Source: a bacterium
GTDB taxonomy: Bacteria > Auribacterota > JABMQX01
Length of the DNA: 64,000 nt
Assembly: GCA_030691545.1 (NCBI GenBank)
Contig: JAUYEE010000330.1
Location: 67,553-131,552 of the forward strand
Direction of reading: 5' to 3'
Both the position numbers and the translations under genes were made by a program. Positions 5,877 to 34,304 of the stretch are shown here, piece after piece (within the stretch, counting starts at the first letter, position 1; each line of letters begins with the position of its first letter). The notes under the pieces are model-generated. The model had not been told where the DNA came from. It worked only from the letters and a program-made list of their open reading frames with translations, and did not search any database.

Positions 5877-6841
5877 AACCGGGCATTGACGTTGAGAAAA
5901 AAGTCAGGCTGCTTAGAGAGAGAGTCGGCGAGGCAATCTCGCTCCTCGGGACGTGCTCGATCTGCCCGAGGAACTGCGGCGTGAATCGCCTCGAGGGAGA
6001 AACCGGCGTATGCCGGGTTGGCAGAGAAGTGATTGTCTCGACGGCGTCCCTCCATCACGGGGAGGAACCGCCGATTTCAGGTTACTGCGGCTCGGGGACC
6101 ATTTTCTTCTCGTCGTGCAATCTCCGATGCGTCTTCTGCCAGAACTACGAGATTAGCCAGATGAGCCACGGGGACCCCGTGACTACGGACGAGTTGGCGG
6201 CGATGATGCTGGCGTTGCAGAAGAAAGGCGCCCACAACATCAACTTAGTGACGCCCACACATTTCGGGCCGCAGATCATGGAGGCTCTTCTCAAAGCGTA
6301 CGAGAGAGGTCTGAGTATTCCTATCGTGTACAACTGCGGCGGCTATGACTCCGTGGAGGTGTTGAAGCTGTGGGATGGCATCATTGACATCTACATGCCG
6401 GACATGAAATACGGAAAAGAAGAGTCCGCGAGAAAATATTCCTCCGCGCCGGATTATCCGCGGGCTAATCAGGAAGCCGTCTTAGAGATGCACCGGCAGG
6501 TGGGAGACCTCCGGATGGACGAGCAGGGCATCGCCAAAAGAGGCTTGCTCATTCGCCATCTTGTTCTCCCGAACGGCGTCGCCGGCAGCGAAGAGGTCAT
6601 GCGCTTCATCGCCGAGAAGGTCTCCCGCGGCACGTACATCAGCCTCATGAGCCAGTACTTCCCACAGTACCGGGCGGACGAGTTCCCGGAGATTAACCGG
6701 CGAATCACAAGGGCGGAATATCTCCCCGTCCAAAACCTGATGAAGAAGCTCGGCTTGACCAGCGGCTGGTTTCAGAACGTCCCCATTGACCCGGAGGTCT
6801 TCGCGCTTCGTCGGTTCTTGCTCGGGGACACGGACAAGTAG
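5873..6841 (+). CDS. radical SAM protein, PflX-like (COG1313, pyruvate-formate-lyase-activase homolog)
   Basis: Cys cluster (CSICPRNCGVNR, FFSSCNLRCVFCQN) typical of PflX-type radical SAM proteins. ATG 5873 overlaps the stop of the previous gene (ATGA). Confidence 0.85.
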   Translation: MKPGIDVEKKVRLLRERVGEAISLLGTCSICPRNCGVNRLEGETGVCRVGREVIVSTASLHHGEEPPISGYCGSGTIFFSSCNLRCVFCQNYEISQMSHGDPVTTDELAAMMLALQKKGAHNINLVTPTHFGPQIMEALLKAYERGLSIPIVYNCGGYDSVEVLKLWDGIIDIYMPDMKYGKEESARKYSSAPDYPRANQEAVLEMHRQVGDLRMDEQGIAKRGLLIRHLVLPNGVAGSEEVMRFIAEKVSRGTYISLMSQYFPQYRADEFPEINRRITRAEYLPVQNLMKKLGLTSGWFQNVPIDPEVFALRRFLLGDTDK

Positions 6842-7024
6842 CGCCCCGCTGTCCGAGCCAAACGCAGAGACCCCAAATATCCCGCGCTTCTAACTTACAC
6901 TCATCTTGGCGCCTTCGGGTCTTTGGGAGCAGCGTCTTTTGCCCTGTTTCTCTCGCCAAGCGGCGAAGCCGCCAAGGGGCCACGCCCCATCATCACAACC
7001 GCAAACATTCAGGGACATCGCGCT

Positions 7025-7054
7025 TGACGTCGGCCACAGGTTTGCAATATAGTG
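7025..7054 (+). promoter_or_regulatory. sigma70-like promoter (TTGACG-N18-TATAGT) with GTGACTG direct repeats
   Basis: cttgacgtcggccacaggtttgcaatatagtgactgttgggcttagtcattgtgactgg lies immediately upstream of the small ORF. The -10 overlaps an operator-like TGACTG..N15..GTGACTG. Confidence 0.4.
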
Positions 7055-7132
7055 ACTGTTGGGCTTAGTCATTGTGACTGGACTCGGAAACTCGTGAGGC
7101 GGGGGAATCCCTTGAGAAAAGGAGACGACACG

Positions 7133-7261
7133 ATGGGCAAGACTCGCATAGGTTACCGCAGCGCCATAACCGGCAGATTTGTGAAACCCGGGGACGCTAA
7201 AAAGCATCCGCGGACAACGGTGGGTGAGCGGATCCCCGTGAAGCCTAAGAAAGGCGAGTGA
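7133..7261 (+). CDS. small basic protein, 42 aa (hypothetical; possible regulator of the downstream R-M-like module)
   Basis: ATG 7133 is preceded by AAAGGAGA plus 7 nt. Protein MGKTRIGYRSAITGRFVKPGDAKKHPRTTVGERIPVKPKKGE. The ORF-track start at 7052 lies inside the promoter -10 element. Confidence 0.4.
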   Translation: MGKTRIGYRSAITGRFVKPGDAKKHPRTTVGERIPVKPKKGE

Positions 7262-7643
7262 CTTCTATCGGGAGCGTCTGGGCATCATGTTTGCAGCGCC
7301 GGCGGCTGCTCATGCTGTCTTGGGCGGTATAGCCAGCCGTAAGATCACGCCGCCGCAACAAGATGATCGAGGTGAGGCCGAACATGCGGCTTCATATCCG
7401 GGCGCACGAGGCCGTTCCTCGGTGGAAACGCCTGCGGTCGGGGTGAGTTCTTGTCGGCCCCGTCACCAAGCGCACGAGGGTTGAAAGGGAAGAAGCCAGG
7501 CGTATCGGCCAGTGGGCGTGCAACGGGGAGGCAGACCCGAAAGGGCCCGGACTAATCGTGTTATGAACAAGCCGGGTGGAGCATAGTCGGCCAGAAGCAG
7601 AACGGGGGCCGAGCGAAGTTGAGGGCCAGCGAGGACGTTCGGC

Positions 7644-8432
7644 GTGAAGAAAACGAAAGCATTCGATGTATTCGCCTCTTGCGCTCACGCGATCATACAG
7701 GCGGTACTGATAAATCGGGTTAGCAAGACCGACAAGGAATTCCACTTCCAGAACTGGTTTGAGGATCGCCTCCGGGGTACTGGAGTTCTGTTCGACAAGA
7801 GCGGCAGGAATTCGTACCCGGACTTCACTCTGGTGCAGTTCACCGAGGGGTACGAGACGAAAGGACTTGCGTGGCCGGGCAGAGAATCAACATACGACTG
7901 CAACAGTCAGGTTCCGAGCGGGTATCACAACGGACGTGACATATTCTATGTATTCGGGCGCTATCCGAAGGCGGAGGACGACGCAAGGGAGTATCCGGTG
8001 ATTGACTTGGTGCTGTGCCATGGCGACTTCCTTAATGCGGACCACGAATACGTTCACAAGAACAAGGCAATCAAGGGCTTCGGTACCTACGGGGACATCA
8101 TGATCCGGGACAGGAAGATGTACGTCGCACCTACCCCTTTTGCCCTTGCACGTGGCCTCACGGGCACTCGGACTTTGCTGGTACCATCGTCATGGGAACC
8201 CCCGAAGGGATTCAAGAAGGTCGGAGATATCATGCGGGTAGAAGCGCCAGACCTTGTGGTTGGGTACGAGTTCGACCTCAAGGCAAACAGCATTTGTGCG
8301 AAGGCGGTTCCGAATCCTGCGGCAGGCAAGGAGCACTGCTTCGTCTCCTATCGAATCGAATCGGACCCCGACGCGGCCGTCACTCTGGTTTGCAACGCGC
8401 ACCGTGAGCGTCTGGACGACTCTGACGCGTGA
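7644..8432 (+). CDS. PD-(D/E)xK nuclease, candidate Type II restriction endonuclease
   Basis: 262 aa. YPDF...(11 aa)...EGYETK gives a PD...ExK catalytic motif. Lower GC than flanks. Immediately upstream of a DNA methyltransferase on the same strand. Confidence 0.55.
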   Translation: MKKTKAFDVFASCAHAIIQAVLINRVSKTDKEFHFQNWFEDRLRGTGVLFDKSGRNSYPDFTLVQFTEGYETKGLAWPGRESTYDCNSQVPSGYHNGRDIFYVFGRYPKAEDDAREYPVIDLVLCHGDFLNADHEYVHKNKAIKGFGTYGDIMIRDRKMYVAPTPFALARGLTGTRTLLVPSSWEPPKGFKKVGDIMRVEAPDLVVGYEFDLKANSICAKAVPNPAAGKEHCFVSYRIESDPDAAVTLVCNAHRERLDDSDA

Positions 8433-16544: not shown

Positions 16545-18164
16545 ATGGGGAAAATCGTATTTCTTCTTACAGTGGCGCTGGCGGTGTCAGCGTCTTCGCC
16601 GGCTTTAGCAGCAACCTGGCACGTCAGCGAATCGGTCGAAAGCTCCGGAGACGGCGCCTCCTGGGGAACCGCCTTCAAGAGAATCCAGGAAGGGATTGAT
16701 GCGTCCTCGGACGGCGACACCGTGATTGTCGGTCCGGGAACCTACGTAGAGAACATTCGCTTCTCCGGCAAAAACATCACCCTCCGTAGCACCGATCCCC
16801 TCGATCCCGCCATCGTCGCCGCCACAATCATTGACGGCAACCAATCCGGCTCCGTCGTCACGTTCGATGGCACGGAGGACGAAACGTGCTGCCTGCGTGG
16901 TTTCACCATTCGAAATGGGGGCGCTGACTACGGAGCAGGGATCACCGGCAGCAAAGCGGGGCTTTTTACTCAGGCGACAATCGAGCGGAACCAAATTCGC
17001 GACAATTCGGCGTCTATCCATGGCGGGGCCGTAGCACACTGCGACGGCGCGATCGTCGAGAACAGAATCGTCGCGAACAGCGCGACCGGCATGGGCGGGG
17101 GCCTGTACGACTGCAATGGTCTGATCGCCTGGAACGTGATAATCGGGGACTCCGCCGGGCACGGCGGTGGTCTCGCTAAATGCCAGGCAACGATCAGTGG
17201 AAACGTTCTGTCGGACAATACGGCTACGAGAGAGGGCGGCGGCCTTTATATGTGCGACCGCATGATCTCGGGTAATCAGATCACAGGATGCTCCGGCTCC
17301 ATCGGGGCGGCGTTAGCCGATTGCGATGGCTCCATCCAGCGGAATACCATATCCCTAACGAAGTGGGGCAGTAGCGTGCTCGAGGACTGCGACGGCCTGA
17401 TCGAGGGCAACGCGATCACAGGCAACTCGGGGACGGCCATTTACGACTGCGATGGGACCATCGGCAATAACCTCGTCGCGGGTAACCGCGGAAAAGGCGG
17501 GGGCGGCATCTCAGAATGCGAGGGCATTATTGTCAACAACACCATCGTCAACAACTGGGCAGCCGCAGGCGGCGGCATCTGCTATTCCCAAGGCGTCATC
17601 GTGAACTGCGTTATCTGGGGAAACGACGCCACCTACGATTACTTAGGCCAGGTTTACTCCTCAAATGAGCCGACCTATTCCTGCATCCAGGATTGGAGCG
17701 GAGATGAGGGAAATACCGCGGAAGACCCGCAATTCGTTGACCCTGACGGGCCCGACAACAAGCTCGACACGTACCAAGATAACGATTACCACCTCCTCCC
17801 CGATTCGCCGTGCATTGATGCCGGCGAGAATTGGATGCTCGATCCGGCCAGCCTGGACCTGGAAGGGAATCTGCGCATTGCCTTTGGAGGAAAGTCTCTC
17901 ACCGTGGACATGGGCACCTACGAATACAACTCCAGTCCTTTTGCCATCAGCCAAATCTTCATGGACAACGACTCCCTCGTCATAACCTGGCACAGCCAGC
18001 CGAATGACACCTACGTTCTCTGGTTTTGCACCGACCCCGCGTTCCAGACATGGGCCAGAGGTGCGACTATCCCCTCCGATGGAGCTACCACCACATTCAC
18101 TGTGGTCAGCATCGCACCGTTTCCCGACTATCAGCTTTTCCGGATTGAGATGACCAGCCCCTGA
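16545..18164 (+). CDS. secreted right-handed parallel beta-helix repeat protein with conserved C-terminal domain
   Basis: Signal peptide (MGKIVFLLTVALAVSASSPALAATW). Repeated NxxxGGG/beta-helix turns. C-terminal ~150 aa homologous to the C-terminus of the 31860..34304 protein. Confidence 0.8.
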   Translation: MGKIVFLLTVALAVSASSPALAATWHVSESVESSGDGASWGTAFKRIQEGIDASSDGDTVIVGPGTYVENIRFSGKNITLRSTDPLDPAIVAATIIDGNQSGSVVTFDGTEDETCCLRGFTIRNGGADYGAGITGSKAGLFTQATIERNQIRDNSASIHGGAVAHCDGAIVENRIVANSATGMGGGLYDCNGLIAWNVIIGDSAGHGGGLAKCQATISGNVLSDNTATREGGGLYMCDRMISGNQITGCSGSIGAALADCDGSIQRNTISLTKWGSSVLEDCDGLIEGNAITGNSGTAIYDCDGTIGNNLVAGNRGKGGGGISECEGIIVNNTIVNNWAAAGGGICYSQGVIVNCVIWGNDATYDYLGQVYSSNEPTYSCIQDWSGDEGNTAEDPQFVDPDGPDNKLDTYQDNDYHLLPDSPCIDAGENWMLDPASLDLEGNLRIAFGGKSLTVDMGTYEYNSSPFAISQIFMDNDSLVITWHSQPNDTYVLWFCTDPAFQTWARGATIPSDGATTTFTVVSIAPFPDYQLFRIEMTSP

Positions 18165-22439: not shown

Positions 22440-25400
22440 TCAGTCTCCAGCGGCAGCAAAGATGCGGTAGAAGCGCTGTGTTACGGACGGGTCGCCGGGA
22501 GAAATCCCCGTAGTGGTTCCATCATCCGTCCAGCTCAGGACGTTGCCATTGGCGAGGAGATTCGCAGCGGACAACCATCTCCTGTCGGTGAAGTGGGCAG
22601 CGAACTCCACTTCGTAGCTGTTCCCCTGCTCGACTTCCCACACGACAGTGACTGTCTTGTTCCCTTTGCCGAGCATAAGATCAAGGACTCTCGGTGTGGT
22701 GTTCTGAATCTCCGACACAATGAGCCGATCGAGAGCGAGGTTGCGGTCCTCGGGTGGCTCGTAATAGTCGTTCACGAATGCCAGGGCGACGATGTGCTCG
22801 CCCTTCGTCACTGTCGCAGACAGGAGGAAGCGGCTGGGGGACTGGCTGTCCACGGTCTCCTCATCCTGCTTCACCCCGTCAATTCTCAGTTCCAAAAGCG
22901 GATACACTCCGAGGGCGGGTGTGCCGTAGCCTGTCACCTCGAACGAGTAATCTCCGGAATTAGTGAAAAGAACGGATGCTTCGAGCCGGCCATTGCTTCC
23001 GCAGAAGGCGATTCCGTTGGCGATGCGGAAGTAGCCGAAGCCCTTCGGCTCCATTTCCTCCGCCTCGATTCTCAAGCCGGACGGCGTCCGGATCGTGGCG
23101 CCCAGGTCGGTCAGGAGCGTTGAAATGATTCTCTCCGCCTTGCCGCGGTTTTTCTGCTCGGTTTCCCACGCAATCTCGTCGAGGAGAATGACCCCATCTC
23201 CCCGGTTCACCTGCACGATGGCGCCCGGGCGCGTCAGAAAAGCCTCGTCCTGGGGCGATCGGGCCAAGCCATATCTCACCTGGTCCATGTAAAGGTTCCG
23301 GTCGTCCGGTGGATCCCAGGCGTCGTTGGTGAACACGAGAGCCATCTCGTGTTGTCCCGCCGAAAGGTTTGCGCCAAGCGAGTACAACTGCCAGGTCTCG
23401 CTCTTCACAACAAGCGCGTCCTCGAACTTCCCGTCAATTCGGAGGACCATTCGGGGATATTCGCCATAGGCTTGCGTCCCTCTCGCGATGACGCCGAAGA
23501 GATACGTGCCGCCCTTTGCGACAGTGATGTTCTGCGCCACGTAGCCGTTGACGTACATGTTCCAGCCGCCAGCCACGGGACCGCCGCCCGTTTTCACGGG
23601 CATGTTCTCCACCTCGATGACCTCGTAATGAGTCAAGGTGAATCGCTTGCGGTAAACCCTCTCGGCGATGTCCTCAGAGAGCGTCGCCTCGCGGTCCCAG
23701 CTTCCCGGTTGATCAATCCAGTACAGGTCGTAATTTGTGAGAGAGGAGACGTCCTGCGTCTTCTCCCCTTTGAGAATGGGCACGCTCACGTTGGGTGCAG
23801 CCTCCAGGTCCGGAAACAGCGTCGAAGCCGCTGCCGAAAGGAACGCGTCGGATGGACGATGGAGCAGGAGCTTTCCTCCTTGCTCGACATAGGAAGCGAA
23901 CTTCCCGAGAAATGCCTGCGCCTCATTCCAGGCGCTGTCGCCGCCTGCGATCAGTAGCAGAGGGTAGATTGCCACGTTCTGCGTGGCGAGGCGACCGGAG
24001 AGGTTCTCGTGGAGCAGGCCGAGTTCAGAGAGCGCCTTCGCCGCGTCGGAATCTGGCTCTGCGACAAGCCCCGCATAACGGAGATGATTGCTTTGATGGG
24101 AACAGTAATCGAGAGTTTGTTGGAGCAGGATTCCCGCCATCGGCTCGGAAGAGAACTTCGTCACTATGAGCATCTGGGAACAAAGGAATCCGCCTTTCCC
24201 GCGCGGCACCTCAACCATCGTGGCGTGGTCAAGCCCGTTCTCCGAGCCAACGTCCGCCAACACGCGGAAATTCCCCCGCGAAGGCTTCGGCAGATTCCCT
24301 GCCGTCACCAGGTTGTCGCCGCGCCACCAGCGAAGGTCCTCTGCCGACATTCCTGAAACGATCGAGTGGTCCGCGGCTCGTGGAAACGCGAAGTTTGCCC
24401 GGTAGTCTGTAACCGAAAGCGAAAGGGGCATCCAGCGCGGGTAGGAGGATTGCTCGAGAACGATGATCCATCCGCCGCCTTCCGCAAATGCTTCCCATCT
24501 CGCTCCAATGCTCTCCGCCCCGACCTGAAGCGCCTGCTCTTCACGGAGTGAATTCTTCCCGACAATCAGCACATCGAGCCGGTCGTAGGGCGCCGTCGCG
24601 AGGTCGCTGATTGGCGTGTAGGGAACGCCCTGCTGGGTGAGAAGCGCAGCCGTGCTTCCTTCCGTGTCAAAGACACCGAGCCTTGTGCCCTCAGCAAGTG
24701 TAAGAAGAGGCGCTGCACAAGCGGCATACATCTTCTCATCCGAAAAGACTGTCGTTTCCCCGTCGAGAAGCTCGATGGTCAGTCTGAAATTGCCCGGCGT
24801 CGAGGGCGTCTGAAATGCAATCGTCTCCCGCCTTCTGTCGGCGGGCTCCATCGGGAAGCTTCGCGTGCTTGATTGACCTCCCACACTCCACTGGAGCGTG
24901 TAATTACCGTGCCGCATCGTGTTGTTATAGATGCTGAGCGACCGCTCGACCGTCTCGCCGATGAAGAACCGGCTGTCGTATTCCTTCACGAAGACGGCGT
25001 TCGGGTGATAGGCTTCCTTCTGAACCTGGTAAAGATAATTCTCCTCGGTGTTCAGGTCGAGGGCGCCCCAGCGAGTGGCGATGTCCTCGAACATCGTCCA
25101 GGGGCACATACCGTTCACTCCGTAATCGCGATACGCCTCGATCTGCATTCGCCACGTCCAGCCTTTGGCTTGGTTTCGGTAGTAGGACAGGTCGGCGTAC
25201 GGTTCGTCCCCGTACAGAATCGTGAAGCCGTCAGGCGAGGACGCTGGCACCCAGAGGAACTCCCCGATGTACAGCGGCTTCTGCCGATCCCATTGCCACA
25301 TGCCGCCCGGAGCGAAGCCGATGGGAATTGGCTCGTCCATCCAATAGGCCGTGTTCGGCCAGAGGTGATAATTCGGAAACTCGTGGGGATAATGCAGACC

Positions 25401-29077: not shown

Positions 29078-30115
29078 TTGAAACTGACACGACAACGCTT
29101 GGAACAGCTTCTCGAAAAATTCCAGGGCCTCAAGGTCACCGTCGTGGGCGACTTCTATCTCGACCGATACATCTCCGGCAGCATGGAATCCATCTCGCGT
29201 GAGGCGGCCGTGCCGGTGGTTCGCATACAGAGCGATGTCTATTCTCCCGGCGCCGCTGGCAACACCGCATGCAACCTCTCGTCCATGGGAGCGGAGGTCT
29301 TCGCGGTCAGCGTCCTCGGAGATGACCTCAGCGCGGACATTATGAGGAAGGAGCTTGGCAAGAGAGGCGTCAACACCGACAACCTCATCTCCATCGCCAC
29401 CCGCCACACCCCCACCTTCAACAAAATCTACGCCTCGTCTTACCACGGCAGGATGCAGCAGGTCGGACGCTTCGACCAGGAAAATGATTCCCCCATTGGC
29501 TCAGAAGCCGAGTCGCGCGTCATTGAAGTGCTCGATTCGCTTTCCAGCGAATGCGCTGGCATCATCGCTGCCGACTACGCCGAAATCCCCGGCACCGGCG
29601 TCGCTGCCAAACCGATTCTGCAAAAGGTGGCTGCCCTGACCCGCACGAAAGACCTCATCTCCACCGGCGATTCCCGCGACCGCATCGGCGAGTTCTGCGA
29701 CTTCAGCGTGCTGGTTCCTAACGACTACGAAGCCGCGATGGCTGCGGGCGTCTATCGCCCTCACGAGAGCAAACACATCAGCGAGGAAACCGTCCTTGTC
29801 GCCGGGAGAGAACTCTGCGAGATCACCCGCTGCCAGACCCTGATGATAACTCGCGCGGAACGCGGCATGACCGTCTTCAGCAGGGGCGGCAGACCGATTG
29901 ACGTGCCAACCACTCCCTGCACCGGCGAAGTGGACGCCACCGGAGCCGGCGACACCGTCACCGCCGCGATTGCCCTTTCGATAGCCGCGGGAGCCGACGT
30001 CATCGAAGCCGCCGAGCTCGCCAACCTCGCCGCCGGGACCACCGTCAAGAAACTCGGCACCACCGGCTGGCCCACCCCCTCCGAAATCCTCTCCGCGTTC
30101 GACTGCCTTGGGTAG
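29078..30115 (+). CDS. hldE: D-glycero-beta-D-manno-heptose-7-phosphate kinase (HldE/RfaE domain I-like, PfkB family)
   Basis: VTVVGDFYLDRYISG.MESISREAAVPVVRIQ matches the RfaE-I N-terminus. PfkB C-terminal GAGD motif. TTG 29078 preceded by AGGAGGGG plus 7 nt. Confidence 0.7.
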   Translation: MKLTRQRLEQLLEKFQGLKVTVVGDFYLDRYISGSMESISREAAVPVVRIQSDVYSPGAAGNTACNLSSMGAEVFAVSVLGDDLSADIMRKELGKRGVNTDNLISIATRHTPTFNKIYASSYHGRMQQVGRFDQENDSPIGSEAESRVIEVLDSLSSECAGIIAADYAEIPGTGVAAKPILQKVAALTRTKDLISTGDSRDRIGEFCDFSVLVPNDYEAAMAAGVYRPHESKHISEETVLVAGRELCEITRCQTLMITRAERGMTVFSRGGRPIDVPTTPCTGEVDATGAGDTVTAAIALSIAAGADVIEAAELANLAAGTTVKKLGTTGWPTPSEILSAFDCLG

Positions 30116-30207
30116 GCGTCGCAGGGCGGGCAGCGCCCGGGCGATGGAGAGCCTCACCCCGGGCCACCATTGCTCCGAACCCCGGGCCGCGGGGACAGGT
30201 GTCGCTC

Positions 30208-30600
30208 TTACGACGCCCGAGGGGCACGCAAGTGTCTTTTCTTCTTGAGCGCCAACTTCCCGAGATCCGTGATAGCCACGTAGCGCGGGTCCGGGTCCCG
30301 AGGGCTCACTCGAACATCTGGTTCCCCCACCTTGGAGGATATGAGCACGCATCCCCGCATTTCCAGCTCGATGATCTCAAGATCAAGGGCGGGAATGGTG
30401 AGCGCCAGGGTCGATCGCACCTGCTCTATGCGCATGGGCCTGCAACTCTTCTCAGCATGTCGGCCTAGCATTCGAAGGATCTTGCGTTGTGTTCGAGGCA
30501 GCCGCATGCCTGCGTCGCGCAGCCACGCCCCGGTGAGGCAGCTTGCCACAGTGCGCGCGATGGCGGCACCGGCGCCGGAGAGCACCCTTAGCCATGTCAT
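30208..30600 (-). CDS. hypothetical protein, winged-helix-like (130 aa)
   Basis: ATG 30600 preceded by AAGGAGGG. The segment ..RTQRKILRMLGRHAE..RPMRIEQV..CVLISSKVGEPDVR...RYVAITDLGKLALKK looks like an HTH plus beta-wing. Confidence 0.5.
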   Translation of the reverse strand: MTWLRVLSGAGAAIARTVASCLTGAWLRDAGMRLPRTQRKILRMLGRHAEKSCRPMRIEQVRSTLALTIPALDLEIIELEMRGCVLISSKVGEPDVRVSPRDPDPRYVAITDLGKLALKKKRHLRAPRAS

Positions 30601-30651
30601 CTTACCCTCCTTGACCAAGCGGCTAATAACCAAACGCCCCAATCCTGGCCG

Positions 30652-31314
30652 TCAGCCCTGCCCTCTGTGGCACACAAGGGCATAACGCCGCTGGCAGCGC
30701 AGGTCCTCGGGTCTTGCCGCCATGGCGCGCGAGGTCTGCGCACAGATCGTCAGCAATCTTGGGAGAAGCACGGCGTTCCACGCCTCGCAATAGACGCGTA
30801 TGAAGACCCGTGGTCGCCGTCTGCCGGTCTCGTGGACGTTCACGAACCCGTCCCACAGGGTCGTGCCTGCGAAACGGTGCCAGGGAAGGAAGGCGGGGCC
30901 CCGAAGTAGTCGCGGCCGGGTGATGCCTTCGCTGGTGATCTCCACGGCGTCGATGCGTGTGACGCCTGGGCCTGCGTAGACACTTTCAAGTTGCTTGGTT
31001 ATAACCACCGGCTCGATCAGAGACGCTACCGCGCCGCACAGCTGCGCGAAGCGTTCCCCAAGCTTGTCGTTGCGCGTCCCGAACGGCACCCAGGAGAAGC
31101 GAATTTTGATGGTCTCCGAGGCGGACCGGACCCTAACACTATAGCTCTGTCCGGTGAATATGGCATTTACATACCTCGCGCTGGAGCTGTAGGCGACGTC
31201 CGTGATGTCGCGGTAGTAGATCCGCCGCCCTTTGTACTCCAGCGCCTCGGCGAGAAACGACACCCGCTTGCAGCGCGAAATCTGCACAGCGACGATCGGC
31301 GAGTCCGTATCCAT
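30652..31314 (-). CDS. hypothetical protein (220 aa), possibly two PH/GRAM-like beta-sandwich halves
   Basis: ATG 31314 with GGAGGG RBS 7 nt upstream; no recognisable family. Confidence 0.5.
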   Translation of the reverse strand: MDTDSPIVAVQISRCKRVSFLAEALEYKGRRIYYRDITDVAYSSSARYVNAIFTGQSYSVRVRSASETIKIRFSWVPFGTRNDKLGERFAQLCGAVASLIEPVVITKQLESVYAGPGVTRIDAVEITSEGITRPRLLRGPAFLPWHRFAGTTLWDGFVNVHETGRRRPRVFIRVYCEAWNAVLLPRLLTICAQTSRAMAARPEDLRCQRRYALVCHRGQG

Positions 31315-31579
31315 GGCATAACCCTCCACGCAATTCGTTCGGTCGGGACACAGAGGGTGCCCAGCCGTTCCCTACGGTTTCGTCCCTGATGTCCCCGGCA
31401 CGCCCCCCGTTCTGCCGGGATAGGGGAGCCCACAGAGCTTTCCGCCTTGGGCCACATAACCTCCGAAATCCTCTCCCCCTTCCCTTCGCTCGCGCCGCGC
31501 CAGTAATACGAGTTGTCCGGGAGGGCCAGGTGCCGGAACGTGGCGTATGGGGAACCGGGCCGCTGGCGCCTGCGCGGCG

Positions 31580-31831
31580 CTACTCCAGAAACGTCCTGTC
31601 CGGCGGGAAGGCCTCTCCGTCCACCAAGTTCTCAACCTCGTCGAGATGCAAGGTGACACTGTGGCACCTGTACGACCTATCTACGGAGCCATGCGCCTTG
31701 AGCGCACCGCTCTCATAGGTCGCGTAATCCGCCTTAAGGCGCTCGTACTCCGCCTCGTCGAGTTCCAGGTCGATGCCTGGGCTGTGGCCTTTTCCTTCAA
31801 CGGGTCTCAAGTGCACGTCAACGCGCTTCAT
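31580..31831 (-). CDS. hypothetical small acidic protein (83 aa) immediately downstream of the C10 protease gene
   Basis: ATG 31831 lies 28 nt after the stop of 31860..34304, with AAGGAGG 12 nt upstream; no family recognised. Confidence 0.4.
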   Translation of the reverse strand: MKRVDVHLRPVEGKGHSPGIDLELDEAEYERLKADYATYESGALKAHGSVDRSYRCHSVTLHLDEVENLVDGEAFPPDRTFLE

Positions 31832-31859
31832 GTTCCGCTCACGCCTCCTTTGTTTCGGC

Positions 31860-34304
31860 TTATCTCATTTCAACTCGATAGAGCTTCATCCGGCCCGAAG
31901 GGGCGCTATGCGTCCATGACGTCGTGGTACCCTGGGATGGGATGGTGGCGACGCTCGTCCATTGGTCGCCCAGGAGGCTCCCGGACGACCAGATCACATA
32001 GGTGTCCCCAGGCCGACTATACCAGGTCAGCTTGGTCCCACCCCCCGTCGCGCTCACGACACTGAGAACTCTGAACGGGAGCGAGCCGAACTCGTAGGCG
32101 CCCATGTCAACTGTCAGGGAACTGCCCCCGTAAAAGACCCGAAGGTTGCCGTCCATGTCTGTCGCGCGCCACATCCAGTCCTCGTTCTTGCCAGCGTCAA
32201 TGCACGGCGAATCTGCCCGCAGGCGCCAATCACCACCGCCGATGTCCGCGAATCCCGGGTCTCGGGCGGTATTGCCCTCGCCGCCTGCGGCCCAATCCTG
32301 GATGCACGAAAAAATGGGTACAGCGCAGTCGTAGAGCGCTCCGTAGTATGTTGATGTGTTCGCATGGACGATGCAGTTTTGGAGATTGGCCGTGCACCCG
32401 CCCAGTCCACCGCCCCACTGGGCCGAGTTCTTGGAGATAGTGGTATTCTGGATAGCCCCGTTGCATTCATACGCCCCGCCTCCGACCTGCTCGGCGGTGT
32501 TCCCTGATATGACGCAGTTACGAACCGTGCCGTCCCACCTCCCCAGTCCACCGCCCCACTGCGCGGAATTCCCCCTGATTACGGATTTGGCTAATGTCGC
32601 ATCGCCGCTTTTACAAAAAACTCCACCACCCACAACGGCAGAATTTTCTGAGATAACGCAGCCGGTGATCGTGGGGTGGGACTCCACAGAATAGATGCCC
32701 CCGCCCCACTGCGCGGAATTCTGAGTAATTACACAAGTTGCGATTGTTGGGCTGCTGCCCCAAAGGCAAGCGATGCCCCCTCCCCAGTCATCAGCCCGCC
32801 CGCCGCGGATCGTCAACCCGCTTAGCCACACGTCTTCAGTTTCCCCTCTTTTAAAGAGGAACCCCCGTCCGCCGCGCTCGCAGTCAATTACACAGCCGGC
32901 AGGGCCGTTTGCGCTCCGCAGTGTGATGGAACAACCCCCGAGGTCAAGGGTCCTGTTGGCTGCGCCGGTATATGTGCCGTCCGCCACAATCACTGTGTCG
33001 CCAGCGCCTGCGGCGCAAATCCCGGCTTGTATGCTTTTCTTCGGGCCGGATGTCCCTCCGCGCCAAAGGGGTTCCGTGCCATCCCAATCATCTCGGCCAA
33101 TCCCGCCGTTGACGTAGTAGGTCTTTGGCGACGTTTCGCGATGAGGCGCGATGTCCAGAACAGCGTTGCAGGACTCCCACCCGTATGGGAAGTTCCCAAC
33201 GGGGTACCAGCCGTCACCCCCTCCTCCCCACCCCATGTTCAGATGAACAAGGTTGGGAATGTCGTAACCGTCCAGGACGAGGGCGTGATTTACCATCCCA
33301 TACAAGACGGGCTGACCCTTGCTGACCTGTTCGCGCATCACGTCGTACCAATCAGCATCGGTGTAGCCCGATTTTTCGACATAGCGAGTGTGCTTATAGC
33401 GAAAGTACCGTGTCATCGCGCCAGAGTGCATGTACCCCGGGGATTCATCGGGCGAGAACTCGGTGTTCGCGGCCACCGCACAATGGTAGCAGAGGGTGCT
33501 GACGGCATCTTTCACAACTTGGGGGCTGGAAGGATTGGGTTGGTCCGTCATGTTGTCCCAGTCATACGTCGTCGAGCCGAAGTCTGCGCACAAGGTCTCC
33601 TCACCGAGTGACCACCGGTAACAGTGGCTACCGGTGCCCTTTTCGGGATGCCGCCAGTACCGCATTATCTGGGCCATCGCGATGGCTGTACATCCCACGG
33701 TGCAACGCTCGCCTTGATACTGAGGGCACTTGTCCTCGTAAGGGGTAGCCTGAAGCCACGAGGTTGTCAGCAGCGGCCCCACGGGGCCTGAGGAGGTGGG
33801 AGTGCTGGGCCTAATGCCGTCTGGGGAATCAGTGCGTTCCACGAGTAACGCCCAAAGGGCATCAGGCGGCCGTGTCCTGGGATACCGGGAATGCCGAAGC
33901 TCGGAGATTCGGTCGGCGAAAGCGTCCATAATCACCTGTGCCGGTGGGACTTCGGGAACGTGAAGCGTGTTATCCCGAGAGTAGTAGAGCACCGGAGTCA
34001 GCTCGTCATCGGCAACGATGGCAATGCAGCCGCCCTCGGGAACATCAAAGGCAAAACCGATTGTCGTCTCCTTGGCGACGATGGGCCTCGCATTCTGCCC
34101 CGTGATGAACGACTCAGGCCCCGCCGCAAGAGGTTGCTCCTGCGCGTTGTCCTGAAACCGGAGCTTGTACCATGCTCTTGCCGCGATTGCCGCCTGCGAT
34201 GGGTCAACTGGCTCGCCGAAGCCTTCGCGGCTTGCCGCCAAAACCAGAAAAAGGCAAAAACAAGACAGGGCCCCGAAAATTGCTGTAGAGATCGCCCGCC
34301 TCAT
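31860..34304 (-). CDS. secreted C10-family (streptopain-like) cysteine peptidase fused to a parallel beta-helix and conserved C-terminal domain
   Basis: Signal peptide. GCTAIAMAQIMRYWRHP matches the C10 catalytic Cys region (SpeB GCVATATAQIMKYH). Repeated NSAQWGGGI beta-helix turns. C-terminal ~150 aa homologous to the 16545..18164 protein. Confidence 0.8.
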   Translation of the reverse strand: MRRAISTAIFGALSCFCLFLVLAASREGFGEPVDPSQAAIAARAWYKLRFQDNAQEQPLAAGPESFITGQNARPIVAKETTIGFAFDVPEGGCIAIVADDELTPVLYYSRDNTLHVPEVPPAQVIMDAFADRISELRHSRYPRTRPPDALWALLVERTDSPDGIRPSTPTSSGPVGPLLTTSWLQATPYEDKCPQYQGERCTVGCTAIAMAQIMRYWRHPEKGTGSHCYRWSLGEETLCADFGSTTYDWDNMTDQPNPSSPQVVKDAVSTLCYHCAVAANTEFSPDESPGYMHSGAMTRYFRYKHTRYVEKSGYTDADWYDVMREQVSKGQPVLYGMVNHALVLDGYDIPNLVHLNMGWGGGGDGWYPVGNFPYGWESCNAVLDIAPHRETSPKTYYVNGGIGRDDWDGTEPLWRGGTSGPKKSIQAGICAAGAGDTVIVADGTYTGAANRTLDLGGCSITLRSANGPAGCVIDCERGGRGFLFKRGETEDVWLSGLTIRGGRADDWGGGIACLWGSSPTIATCVITQNSAQWGGGIYSVESHPTITGCVISENSAVVGGGVFCKSGDATLAKSVIRGNSAQWGGGLGRWDGTVRNCVISGNTAEQVGGGAYECNGAIQNTTISKNSAQWGGGLGGCTANLQNCIVHANTSTYYGALYDCAVPIFSCIQDWAAGGEGNTARDPGFADIGGGDWRLRADSPCIDAGKNEDWMWRATDMDGNLRVFYGGSSLTVDMGAYEFGSLPFRVLSVVSATGGGTKLTWYSRPGDTYVIWSSGSLLGDQWTSVATIPSQGTTTSWTHSAPSGRMKLYRVEMR

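Follow-up and report, generated by a model that had tools for sequence, protein, structure and literature searches.

The 64,000-nucleotide (nt) stretch of contig JAUYEE010000330.1 analysed here, referred to throughout as the window, contains the gene for a secreted C10 (SpeB-like) cysteine peptidase and, directly downstream of it, three small open reading frames (ORFs) of 83, 220 and 130 amino acids (aa), which are termed orf83, orf220 and orf130. The initial annotation treated the three ORFs as one cluster. Comparison of the locus with the corresponding loci of related lineages reveals that this cluster is a juxtaposition and not a single module. In the account that we favour, and which we consider probable, two independent units lie side by side: Unit A, consisting of the C10 gene and orf83, and Unit B, a 1,382-bp insert. 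The anatomy of the region as a whole, namely a conserved C10-orf83 operon adjoined by a separate insertion that contains orf220 and orf130, can be proposed with high confidence.

The boundary between the two units is defined by the site that is empty in the related lineages. Window positions 32213-31460 and 30101-26014 map by blastn to contiguous sequence in L001, in which the flanks are 88-91% identical at the nucleotide level, with 24 bases of L001 shared by both alignments; the alignments to L004 and L008 behave likewise. The sequence between these positions is bounded at both junctions by direct repeats, with a single-copy empty site in all three lineages, which is an att-like arrangement. 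The repeat, CCTCCGAAATCCTCTCC[G/C]C[G/C]TTC, is 23 bp long and identical at 21 of 23 positions between copies 1,382 bp apart, and it scores 36 as compared with 34 for the best shuffle (z ~6 relative to shuffles). It encodes the residues PSEILSAF near the 3′ end of pfkB, the sugar kinase gene that converges on the protease operon. The last seven codons of pfkB have been replaced by four codons derived from the insert, such that the product terminates in SAFDCLG in place of SAFASLASGQ, and the pfkB reading frame is apparently undisrupted. The GC content of the insert falls in the top 1.5% of windows of the same size, and its tetranucleotide composition also deviates. The insert is single-copy in the window, which contains no further copy of the 23-bp repeat, and both junctions are present at 100% identity in the independently assembled contig L016. 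Unit B is foreign DNA that has recombined into the 3′ end of a pfkB-type kinase gene. The insertion duplicated the 23-bp stretch, displaced the old tail of pfkB, and provided the kinase with a new tail of four codons.

The closest known counterparts are those integrated elements without an integrase, such as cis-mobilisable elements or decayed genomic islets, that lie between att-like repeats where a gene terminates (3′). Unit B resembles these elements in its location at the 3′ terminus of a conserved gene, in the short direct repeats that mark its two junctions, in the replacement of the old gene end, now displaced, by a new one, and in its deviant composition. It differs from them in its very small size (1.38 kb), in having no recombinase and no other known copy, and in the imperfection of its repeat, which could reflect microhomology as opposed to a true att core. 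Unit B is likely to be the cargo or the remnant of an integrative mobile element without a recombinase of its own. The suggestion in the initial annotation that the genes might be left from a mobile element fits orf220 and orf130, while the other option that it offered, a protease-related module, suits orf83; neither option accommodates all three genes.

Several observations weigh against a mobile origin for Unit B. No integrase, transposase or recombinase was found among its two ORFs in Pfam, NCBIfam, PADLOC and PHROG scans, and no terminal inverted repeats were present among the 11 repeat pairs found, so that we can only infer its mobility. In addition, the 23-bp repeat could have arisen from illegitimate recombination mediated by microhomology. 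Indeed, the segment might not derive from a mobile element at all, but might instead represent a one-off microhomology-mediated capture or repair event, or else ancestral sequence that was deleted from the relatives by repeat-mediated recombination. The absence of an att-like site elsewhere is in keeping with such an origin, as are the missing recombinase and inverted repeats and a repeat that is short, imperfect, and only slightly above the best shuffle in score. Yet the duplicated stretch is the 3′ end of pfkB itself, so that the duplication must stem from the insertion event; the same empty site is found in three lineages of different divergence; the composition of the segment is deviant; and homologs of its cargo gene orf220 are often located near mobile-element genes. 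A non-mobile origin is thus improbable, and cargo or a remnant of an integrative element continues to be the preferred reading of Unit B.

Two more specific identities for Unit B were considered and rejected. It is not an insertion sequence or a miniature inverted-repeat transposable element, as it has no terminal inverted repeats, is single-copy in the window, and encodes no transposase domain. Nor do orf220 and orf130 belong to a known anti-phage defence or toxin-antitoxin system, given that no PADLOC family matched at E≤1. Genes within ~8 kb on either side of the insert include accD, a metallophosphatase gene, a GH2 gene, and similar genes. At the same spot in L011, a relative of greater divergence (6288-8026, equivalent to 6250-7988 in L015), an unrelated orphan ORF of 224 aa is accompanied by a 124-bp remnant of pfkB. 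This independent remodelling marks the site as a local rearrangement hotspot. The 224-aa and 81-aa genes of L011 were compared with orf220 and orf130 as possible relatives, and were found to be unrelated to them.

An earlier reading was that all three ORFs form one protease immunity or regulation module together with the C10 gene, composed of an inhibitor, a PH-like adaptor and a DNA-binding regulator. In its favour, all three ORFs lie beyond the protease gene in the same orientation as it, each is preceded by a Shine-Dalgarno (SD) motif, and scans revealed no terminator separating orf83 from orf220. Co-orientation without an intervening terminator also counts against the independence of the two units, since transcriptional read-through from C10-orf83 into the inserted genes, and hence their co-expression, is possible. 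More generally, neither the scans for promoters and terminators nor the folding of spacer RNA yielded a signal exceeding that of shuffled sequences (z = -0.3 for the hairpin in the ancestral spacer between orf83 and pfkB), and an Rfam scan of positions 29800-32000 gave no match. A trypsin-like protease gene lies directly downstream of the orf220 homolog in two of the seven homolog contexts, which hints at a link between the orf220 family and proteases. However, orf220 and orf130 are both missing from the locus in L001, L004 and L008, while the C10-orf83 pair is retained; in the window they lie within an insertion that has its own repeat-flanked boundaries and deviant GC content; a C10 gene accompanies none of the seven orf220 homologs; and orf130 has neither a homolog nor a match to a DNA-binding domain. 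The comparative data therefore largely refute the one-module reading, which we regard as very unlikely. The claim of protease linkage fails for orf220 and orf130, and from all of the comparative evidence the position of the insert beside the protease gene appears accidental and unrelated to the protease.

The ORFs themselves are as initially annotated: all three lie on the minus strand with the lengths and positions listed in Table 1, and the ribosome-binding sites attributed to them are apparent as SD motifs ahead of each start (AAGGAGG for orf83, GGAGGG for orf220, and AAGGAGGG for orf130). The absence of a nameable family was similarly upheld, as scans of Pfam, NCBIfam, PHROGs and PADLOC returned no match to any of the three. 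Since random 700-nt segments of matching composition have an ORF of 130 codons or more in 29% of cases, length is weak evidence of coding in DNA of 59-63% GC. Coding potential was therefore assessed with a codon model trained on the long genes of the window, whose score, in bits per codon, was compared with that of random ORFs. The scores of orf83 (0.225) and orf220 (0.13) were reached by no random ORF, and their homologs independently confirm that both are genes. Pairwise dN/dS values of 0.22-0.58 further establish orf83 as a genuine gene, subject to purifying selection.

Table 1. Features at the junction of the C10-orf83 operon and the insertion (window coordinates).
Feature	Position	Strand	Basis
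pfkB-family sugar kinase (heptose-7-phosphate-kinase-like), convergent with the protease operon	29078-30115	plus	Pfam PfkB, TIGR02198
23-bp direct repeat, right copy (CCTCCGAAATCCTCTCCGCGTTC), inside the functional pfkB 3′ end	30078-30100	plus	
Inserted strain-specific DNA, 1,359 bp (1,382 bp with one repeat copy), GC 63.3%	30101-31459		absent from L001, L004, L008
orf130, 130 aa from ATG (144 aa from upstream TTG)	30208-30600	minus	SD motif, codon score
orf220, 220 aa from ATG (225 aa from upstream GTG)	30652-31314	minus	homologs, AF2 model, Foldseek
Displaced, decaying old pfkB 3′ end (product ending in SEILSPFPSLAPRQ, stop codon 31504-31506), including the left repeat copy (31460-31482)	31460-31506	plus	aligns to the empty site in L001, L004, L008
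Ancestral 73-nt spacer between convergent orf83 and pfkB	31507-31579		nearly identical to L001
orf83, 83 aa	31580-31831	minus	5 homologous clusters, dN/dS, codon score
C10-orf83 spacer, 28 nt, with SD motif AAGGAGG	31832-31859	minus	length the same in five lineages
C10 (SpeB-like) cysteine peptidase, 814 aa, secreted	31860-34304	minus	Pfam, motifs, hydrophobic N-terminus

The status of orf130 is less certain. The initial annotation described its product as winged-helix-like and putatively DNA-binding, a description that found no support in sequence searches: the protein had no Pfam or NCBIfam match at E≤1 and no match to a Protein Data Bank (PDB) sequence at E≤10, and a search of 5.8 billion proteins recovered only orf130 itself. 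No relative of orf130 is found near the orf220 homologs in any of the seven contexts. Its product is basic (isoelectric point, pI, 11). One explanation is that orf130 is no gene, but an ORF that arose by chance in the GC-rich DNA of the insert. The frequency with which random segments contain ORFs of this length is consistent with this view, as are a codon score near zero (0.016), the lack of homologs, a pI typical of spurious GC-rich ORFs, and the fact that orf130 was called by the Logan gene caller only and left uncalled in the GenBank annotation of this metagenome-assembled genome (MAG). Against this, the frame of orf130 is the best of the six, with a score in the top 2.3% of random ORFs; its strong SD motif lies 4 nt before the ATG, where AGGAGG has a background frequency of 0.6% per 15 nt; and it begins 51 nt past orf220 on the same strand. 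A chance origin is accordingly possible but doubtful, and orf130 is probably a real, orphan coding gene.

In contrast to Unit B, which is absent from the related lineages, Unit A is conserved among them. The interval between the C10 stop codon and orf83 is exactly 28 nt, as had been reported, and every orf83 homolog found is situated behind a C10 gene with the identical spacing. These homologs comprise five further clusters, 62-83% identical to orf83 and representing four distinct lineages, all from MAGs or metagenomes of uncultured Verrucomicrobiota. In L001, L004, L008 and L011/L015, the ortholog is on the same strand as the C10 gene, and the order around the orthologs retrieved is accD - C10 - orf83. 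The SD motif of the spacer is kept in four of the five lineages and reads GACGAGG in L004. Furthermore, the pair has remained intact through three independent rearrangements: the insertion in the window, the loss of pfkB in L011/L015, and a tandem duplication of the C10 gene in L004. The orf83 family is confined to one clade of Verrucomicrobiota, in which it is always located immediately 3′ of a C10 gene, and C10 and orf83 are best described as a conserved two-gene operon. In L004 (434-7972), the tandem C10 genes encode proteins of 1186 and 1128 aa and are separated by 591 nt. The single orf83 lies behind the second copy; downstream of the first, homology breaks off at the stop codon, and no orf83 remnant was found there. 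An 83-aa gene upstream of the orf220 homolog in L020 was also considered as a relative of orf83, and proved to encode an unrelated repeat protein.

The position of orf83 recalls that of known inhibitor genes. Small ORFs within ~35 bp of C10 or C47 protease genes, including those for Spi, the staphostatins and the Bacteroides Bfi proteins, encode co-transcribed cognate inhibitors that are recognised largely by their position (PMC2873492). Spi, the inhibitor of SpeB from Streptococcus pyogenes, is classified as MEROPS I69 (Kagawa et al. 2005, as cited in PMC2873492). Like Spi, as far as it is described in that source, orf83 encodes a small protein without a signal peptide, and adjoins and is co-oriented with a C10 gene (PMC2873492). 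The proposed role would also be shared, in that the protein would neutralise protease that becomes active prematurely inside the cell. The product of orf83, an acidic protein (pI 5.0), lacks a signal peptide, a transmembrane segment, and any other hydrophobic segment. It is therefore predicted to be cytoplasmic, whereas the protease is exported. Given that small ORFs near C10 and C47 genes are established cognate inhibitors, an inhibitory function for orf83 is a reasonable proposal. According to this mechanism, orf83 would act as a cytoplasmic partner of C10 that neutralises any protease folding or becoming activated ahead of export, and would operate as Spi does for SpeB and the staphostatins do for the staphopains, without being related to them in sequence.

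The differences from the known systems are nevertheless considerable. Spi, as characterised in the source cited above, is a homolog of the SpeB propeptide, whereas orf83 shows no similarity to the pro-region of its own protease or to the C10 propeptide family PF13734: alignment of the orf83 family with the pro-regions of its proteases in hhalign gave a probability of 0.1%, and PF13734 was not matched in a Pfam scan at E≤1. Because it does not resemble the pro-region of its protease, orf83 is not a propeptide mimic of the Spi type. The I69-like segment at this locus is instead the N-terminal pro-region of the protease itself. The staphostatins A and B (I57 and I58), as well as Bfi and Bti beside the Bacteroides C10 genes, share with orf83 the location of a small ORF within ~35 bp of a papain-like (C47 or C10) protease gene; they are co-transcribed with the protease, have very low sequence conservation, and are recognised mainly by position (PMC2873492, PMC3462683). 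In contrast to orf83 with its 83 residues, the staphostatins and Bfi are 105-138 aa in length and form lipocalin-like, all-beta, eight-stranded barrels with a conserved glycine in the binding loop. No match was found between orf83 and the staphostatin Pfam families or PDB chains in profile searches at permissive E-values. The AlphaFold2 (AF2) model of orf83, which was derived from an alignment of six sequences, predicts a helix at residues 26-40 with low confidence, and a fold search with it gave four matches that were discarded, all having E>6. A ribbon-helix-helix reading of the N-terminus, prompted by the pattern MKRVDVHL, was dropped as it had no profile support.

The inhibitor hypothesis must also contend with several further observations. 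The orf83 protein has no homology to any inhibitor family in Pfam, NCBIfam, PDB or hhalign comparisons, and its AF2 model, with a predicted confidence (pLDDT) of 50, is unusable. Its orthologs all come from closely syntenic genomes of one clade, such that co-occurrence with C10 is confounded by synteny. Moreover, the identity of orf83 to its orthologs (83/83/72/62%) tracks that of the C-terminal domain of the C10 protein (88/86/83/63%) and not that of the catalytic domain (58-61%), whereas tight co-evolution of inhibitor and enzyme would predict otherwise. It is also unlikely that a Sec-exported protease would fold in the cytoplasm of a diderm bacterium. Unlike orf83, the Bfi inhibitors of Bacteroides have export or lipoprotein signals (PMC2873492). 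Finally, in the tandem pair of L004 the leading C10 copy is unaccompanied by an orf83.

The same observations raise the possibility that orf83 is instead a non-inhibitory accessory factor, such as a cytoplasmic chaperone, a factor that targets the C10 pre-protein for export, or a small protein that regulates the operon. The evidence from linkage and selection applies equally to such a factor; orf83 is conserved in parallel with the C-terminal domain and not the catalytic domain; the protease already possesses a Spi-like pro-region of its own for latency; and a cytoplasmic location for orf83 combined with Sec export of the protease would suit this role. Conversely, the other secreted proteins of the window with a related C-terminal domain have no orf83-like neighbour, and orf83 contains no chaperone or regulator domain from Pfam or NCBIfam. 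We know of no dedicated accessory factor of such a kind for C10 peptidases. An accessory function is less likely than not, but only slightly less probable than the inhibitor hypothesis, in which orf83 is a candidate Spi- or staphostatin-like cognate inhibitor. The latter, by analogy of position, is a tentative assignment that is somewhat short of an even prospect. The immunity role proposed in the initial annotation is consequently retained as a possibility for orf83 on the basis of its position, without any Spi-like sequence, and does not extend to orf220 and orf130. The stronger proposition, that orf83 is the first member of a new family of C10 inhibitors, cytoplasmic and restricted to this clade, with no relationship in sequence, and probably none in fold, to either Spi or the staphostatins, is more speculative still.

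The identification of the upstream gene as that of a secreted C10 protease was confirmed. Its product matches Peptidase_C10 (PF01640, E=6.4e-54) and Beta_helix (E=6.6e-12), and a weak match of the pro-region to the Spi-like family Inhibitor_I69 (E=1.1e-3) falls below the cut-off. From the N-terminus, the protein consists of a signal peptide, the Spi-like pro-region, the catalytic domain, a right-handed beta-helix, and a conserved C-terminal domain, and the catalytic motifs GC205TAIAMAQ and H340ALVLDGY are intact. Relative to its counterpart in L001 (632-4027), the closest relative (pfkB 95% identical at the aa level), the gene is a mosaic, with 73% identity in the pro-region, 58% in the catalytic domain, and 88% over the last 115 aa. 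The identity of the catalytic domain is flat, at 58-61%, to every ortholog. This pattern suggests either recombinational replacement or rapid diversification of the core of the protein. The window protein also lacks a block of ~300 aa, composed of BACON/Ig-like repeats, that is found in the orthologs (1081-1186 aa). Elsewhere in the window, a second secreted beta-helix protein (NosD/Beta_helix; 16677-18152, plus strand) has 34% identity to C10 residues 423-813, and a 1500-aa GH2-like protein has a C-terminal domain of ~70 aa (22461-22691, minus strand) that is weakly similar to the C-terminal domain of C10. Neither gene is followed by an orf83-like gene. The C-terminal domain thus looks like one that is common to secreted proteins of this genome. 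On the opposite side of the locus, the kinase encoded by pfkB matches Pfam PfkB (E=2e-30) and scores best against heptose-7-phosphate kinase (rfaE domain I; TIGR02198, E=8.5e-69), although below the curated cut-off.

The larger gene of Unit B, orf220, encodes a basic protein (pI 10) that had been described as PH-like, and structure prediction substantiates this description. A word-indexed protein search with orf220 returned only the protein itself, but an exhaustive HMMER scan of 1.84 billion representatives identified 110 homologs at E≤1e-3, of which 29 had E≤1e-10, with 21-33% identity over residues ~5-195. The AF2 model, based on an alignment of 60 sequences, has a pLDDT of 92.2 and a predicted TM-score (pTM) of 0.86. 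It comprises two seven-stranded antiparallel beta-sandwiches in tandem, each with a long capping helix: strands at residues 8-75 are followed by a helix at 82-113, and strands at 119-175 by a helix at 181-200. The best PDB matches in Foldseek were BBS5, the middle domains of Spt16 and Pob3, the PH-PTB region of Dok7, FERM F3 lobes, and the bacterial PH protein 3dcx. We are confident from this model that orf220 is a tandem (double) PH-like protein belonging to a widespread, uncharacterised family. Its two consecutive sandwich-plus-helix modules resemble the double-PH modules of FACT (Spt16/Pob3) and BBS5, as well as bacterial PH proteins (DUF1696, PDB 3dcx). However, the eukaryotic proteins are not homologous to it in sequence (6-17% identity) and the overall TM-scores are low, at 0.22-0.30, so that only the fold class is held in common. 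Searches of PDB sequences with the single sequence and with the family profile gave nothing meaningful, the viral structure library yielded no significant match to the model, and a tblastn search of plasmids with orf220 and orf130 produced no match apart from one fragment at E=1.

Comparison with Pfam places the family near DUF6585 (PF20226). Although orf220 itself does not match DUF6585 (gathering threshold 27.7 bits), four of 60 family members do so at E≤0.01 (best, 1.4e-6), and the one of these four that was inspected, P0036, aligns to it over the homologous region with 15.7 bits, as compared with the cut-off of 27.7. The relationship between the two families therefore appears to be a distant one. 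Members of the orf220 family either stand alone or are fused to zinc ribbons (14/60), J-domain or DnaJ_C modules, or RDD, GYF or HEAT segments. Fusions of the double-PH domain to Hsp40-type modules recur among P0009, P0012/P0119, P0017, P0019, P0034, P0096 and P0112. Of these, P0009 has a J domain and P0012 has DnaJ_C, while forms of ~540 aa have J-like N-termini (NAYHVLGL) with no obvious HPD motif. These fusions hint at an adaptor or client-binding role for the family.

The genomic contexts of the orf220 homologs dispose of the notion that they regularly follow C10 genes, as no C10 gene is present in any of the seven. In four of the seven, a mobile-element gene lies within ~5 kb: a serine recombinase, a Prim-Pol/AAA_25 primase, an rve transposase, and an IS110 transposase. 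Except for the trypsin-like protease gene noted above, no partner gene recurs in the seven neighbourhoods. In L017 (4001-5742), this is a Zn-ribbon-trypsin gene that follows the orf220 homolog after a gap of 5 nt; in L020 (5001-7780), it is a trypsin-PDZ gene; and a weak similarity exists between the two proteases. Counting the C10 gene of the window, there are three cases in which a member of the family is adjacent to a protease gene, which could reflect either chance or a real association.

Taken together, the insertion of Unit B represents ordinary genome flux, and the locus as a whole provides a lesson for annotation, in that synteny should be checked before adjacent, co-oriented genes of no known family are read as one module. 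For orf220, the tandem PH-like fold is the first confident structural assignment, albeit a predicted one, for a widespread and uncharacterised bacterial family that is related to DUF6585 and frequently occurs in fusions with zinc ribbons or J-domain modules. Should orf83 prove to inhibit C10, it would constitute a new inhibitor family, possibly with a new fold, for streptopain-like enzymes, which are of importance both as virulence factors and as biotechnological proteases. The placement of an inhibitor gene behind its protease gene would then have been invented independently for a third time, here in environmental Verrucomicrobiota, and the design of an operon that pairs a protease with its cognate inhibitor would recur in free-living members of this phylum.

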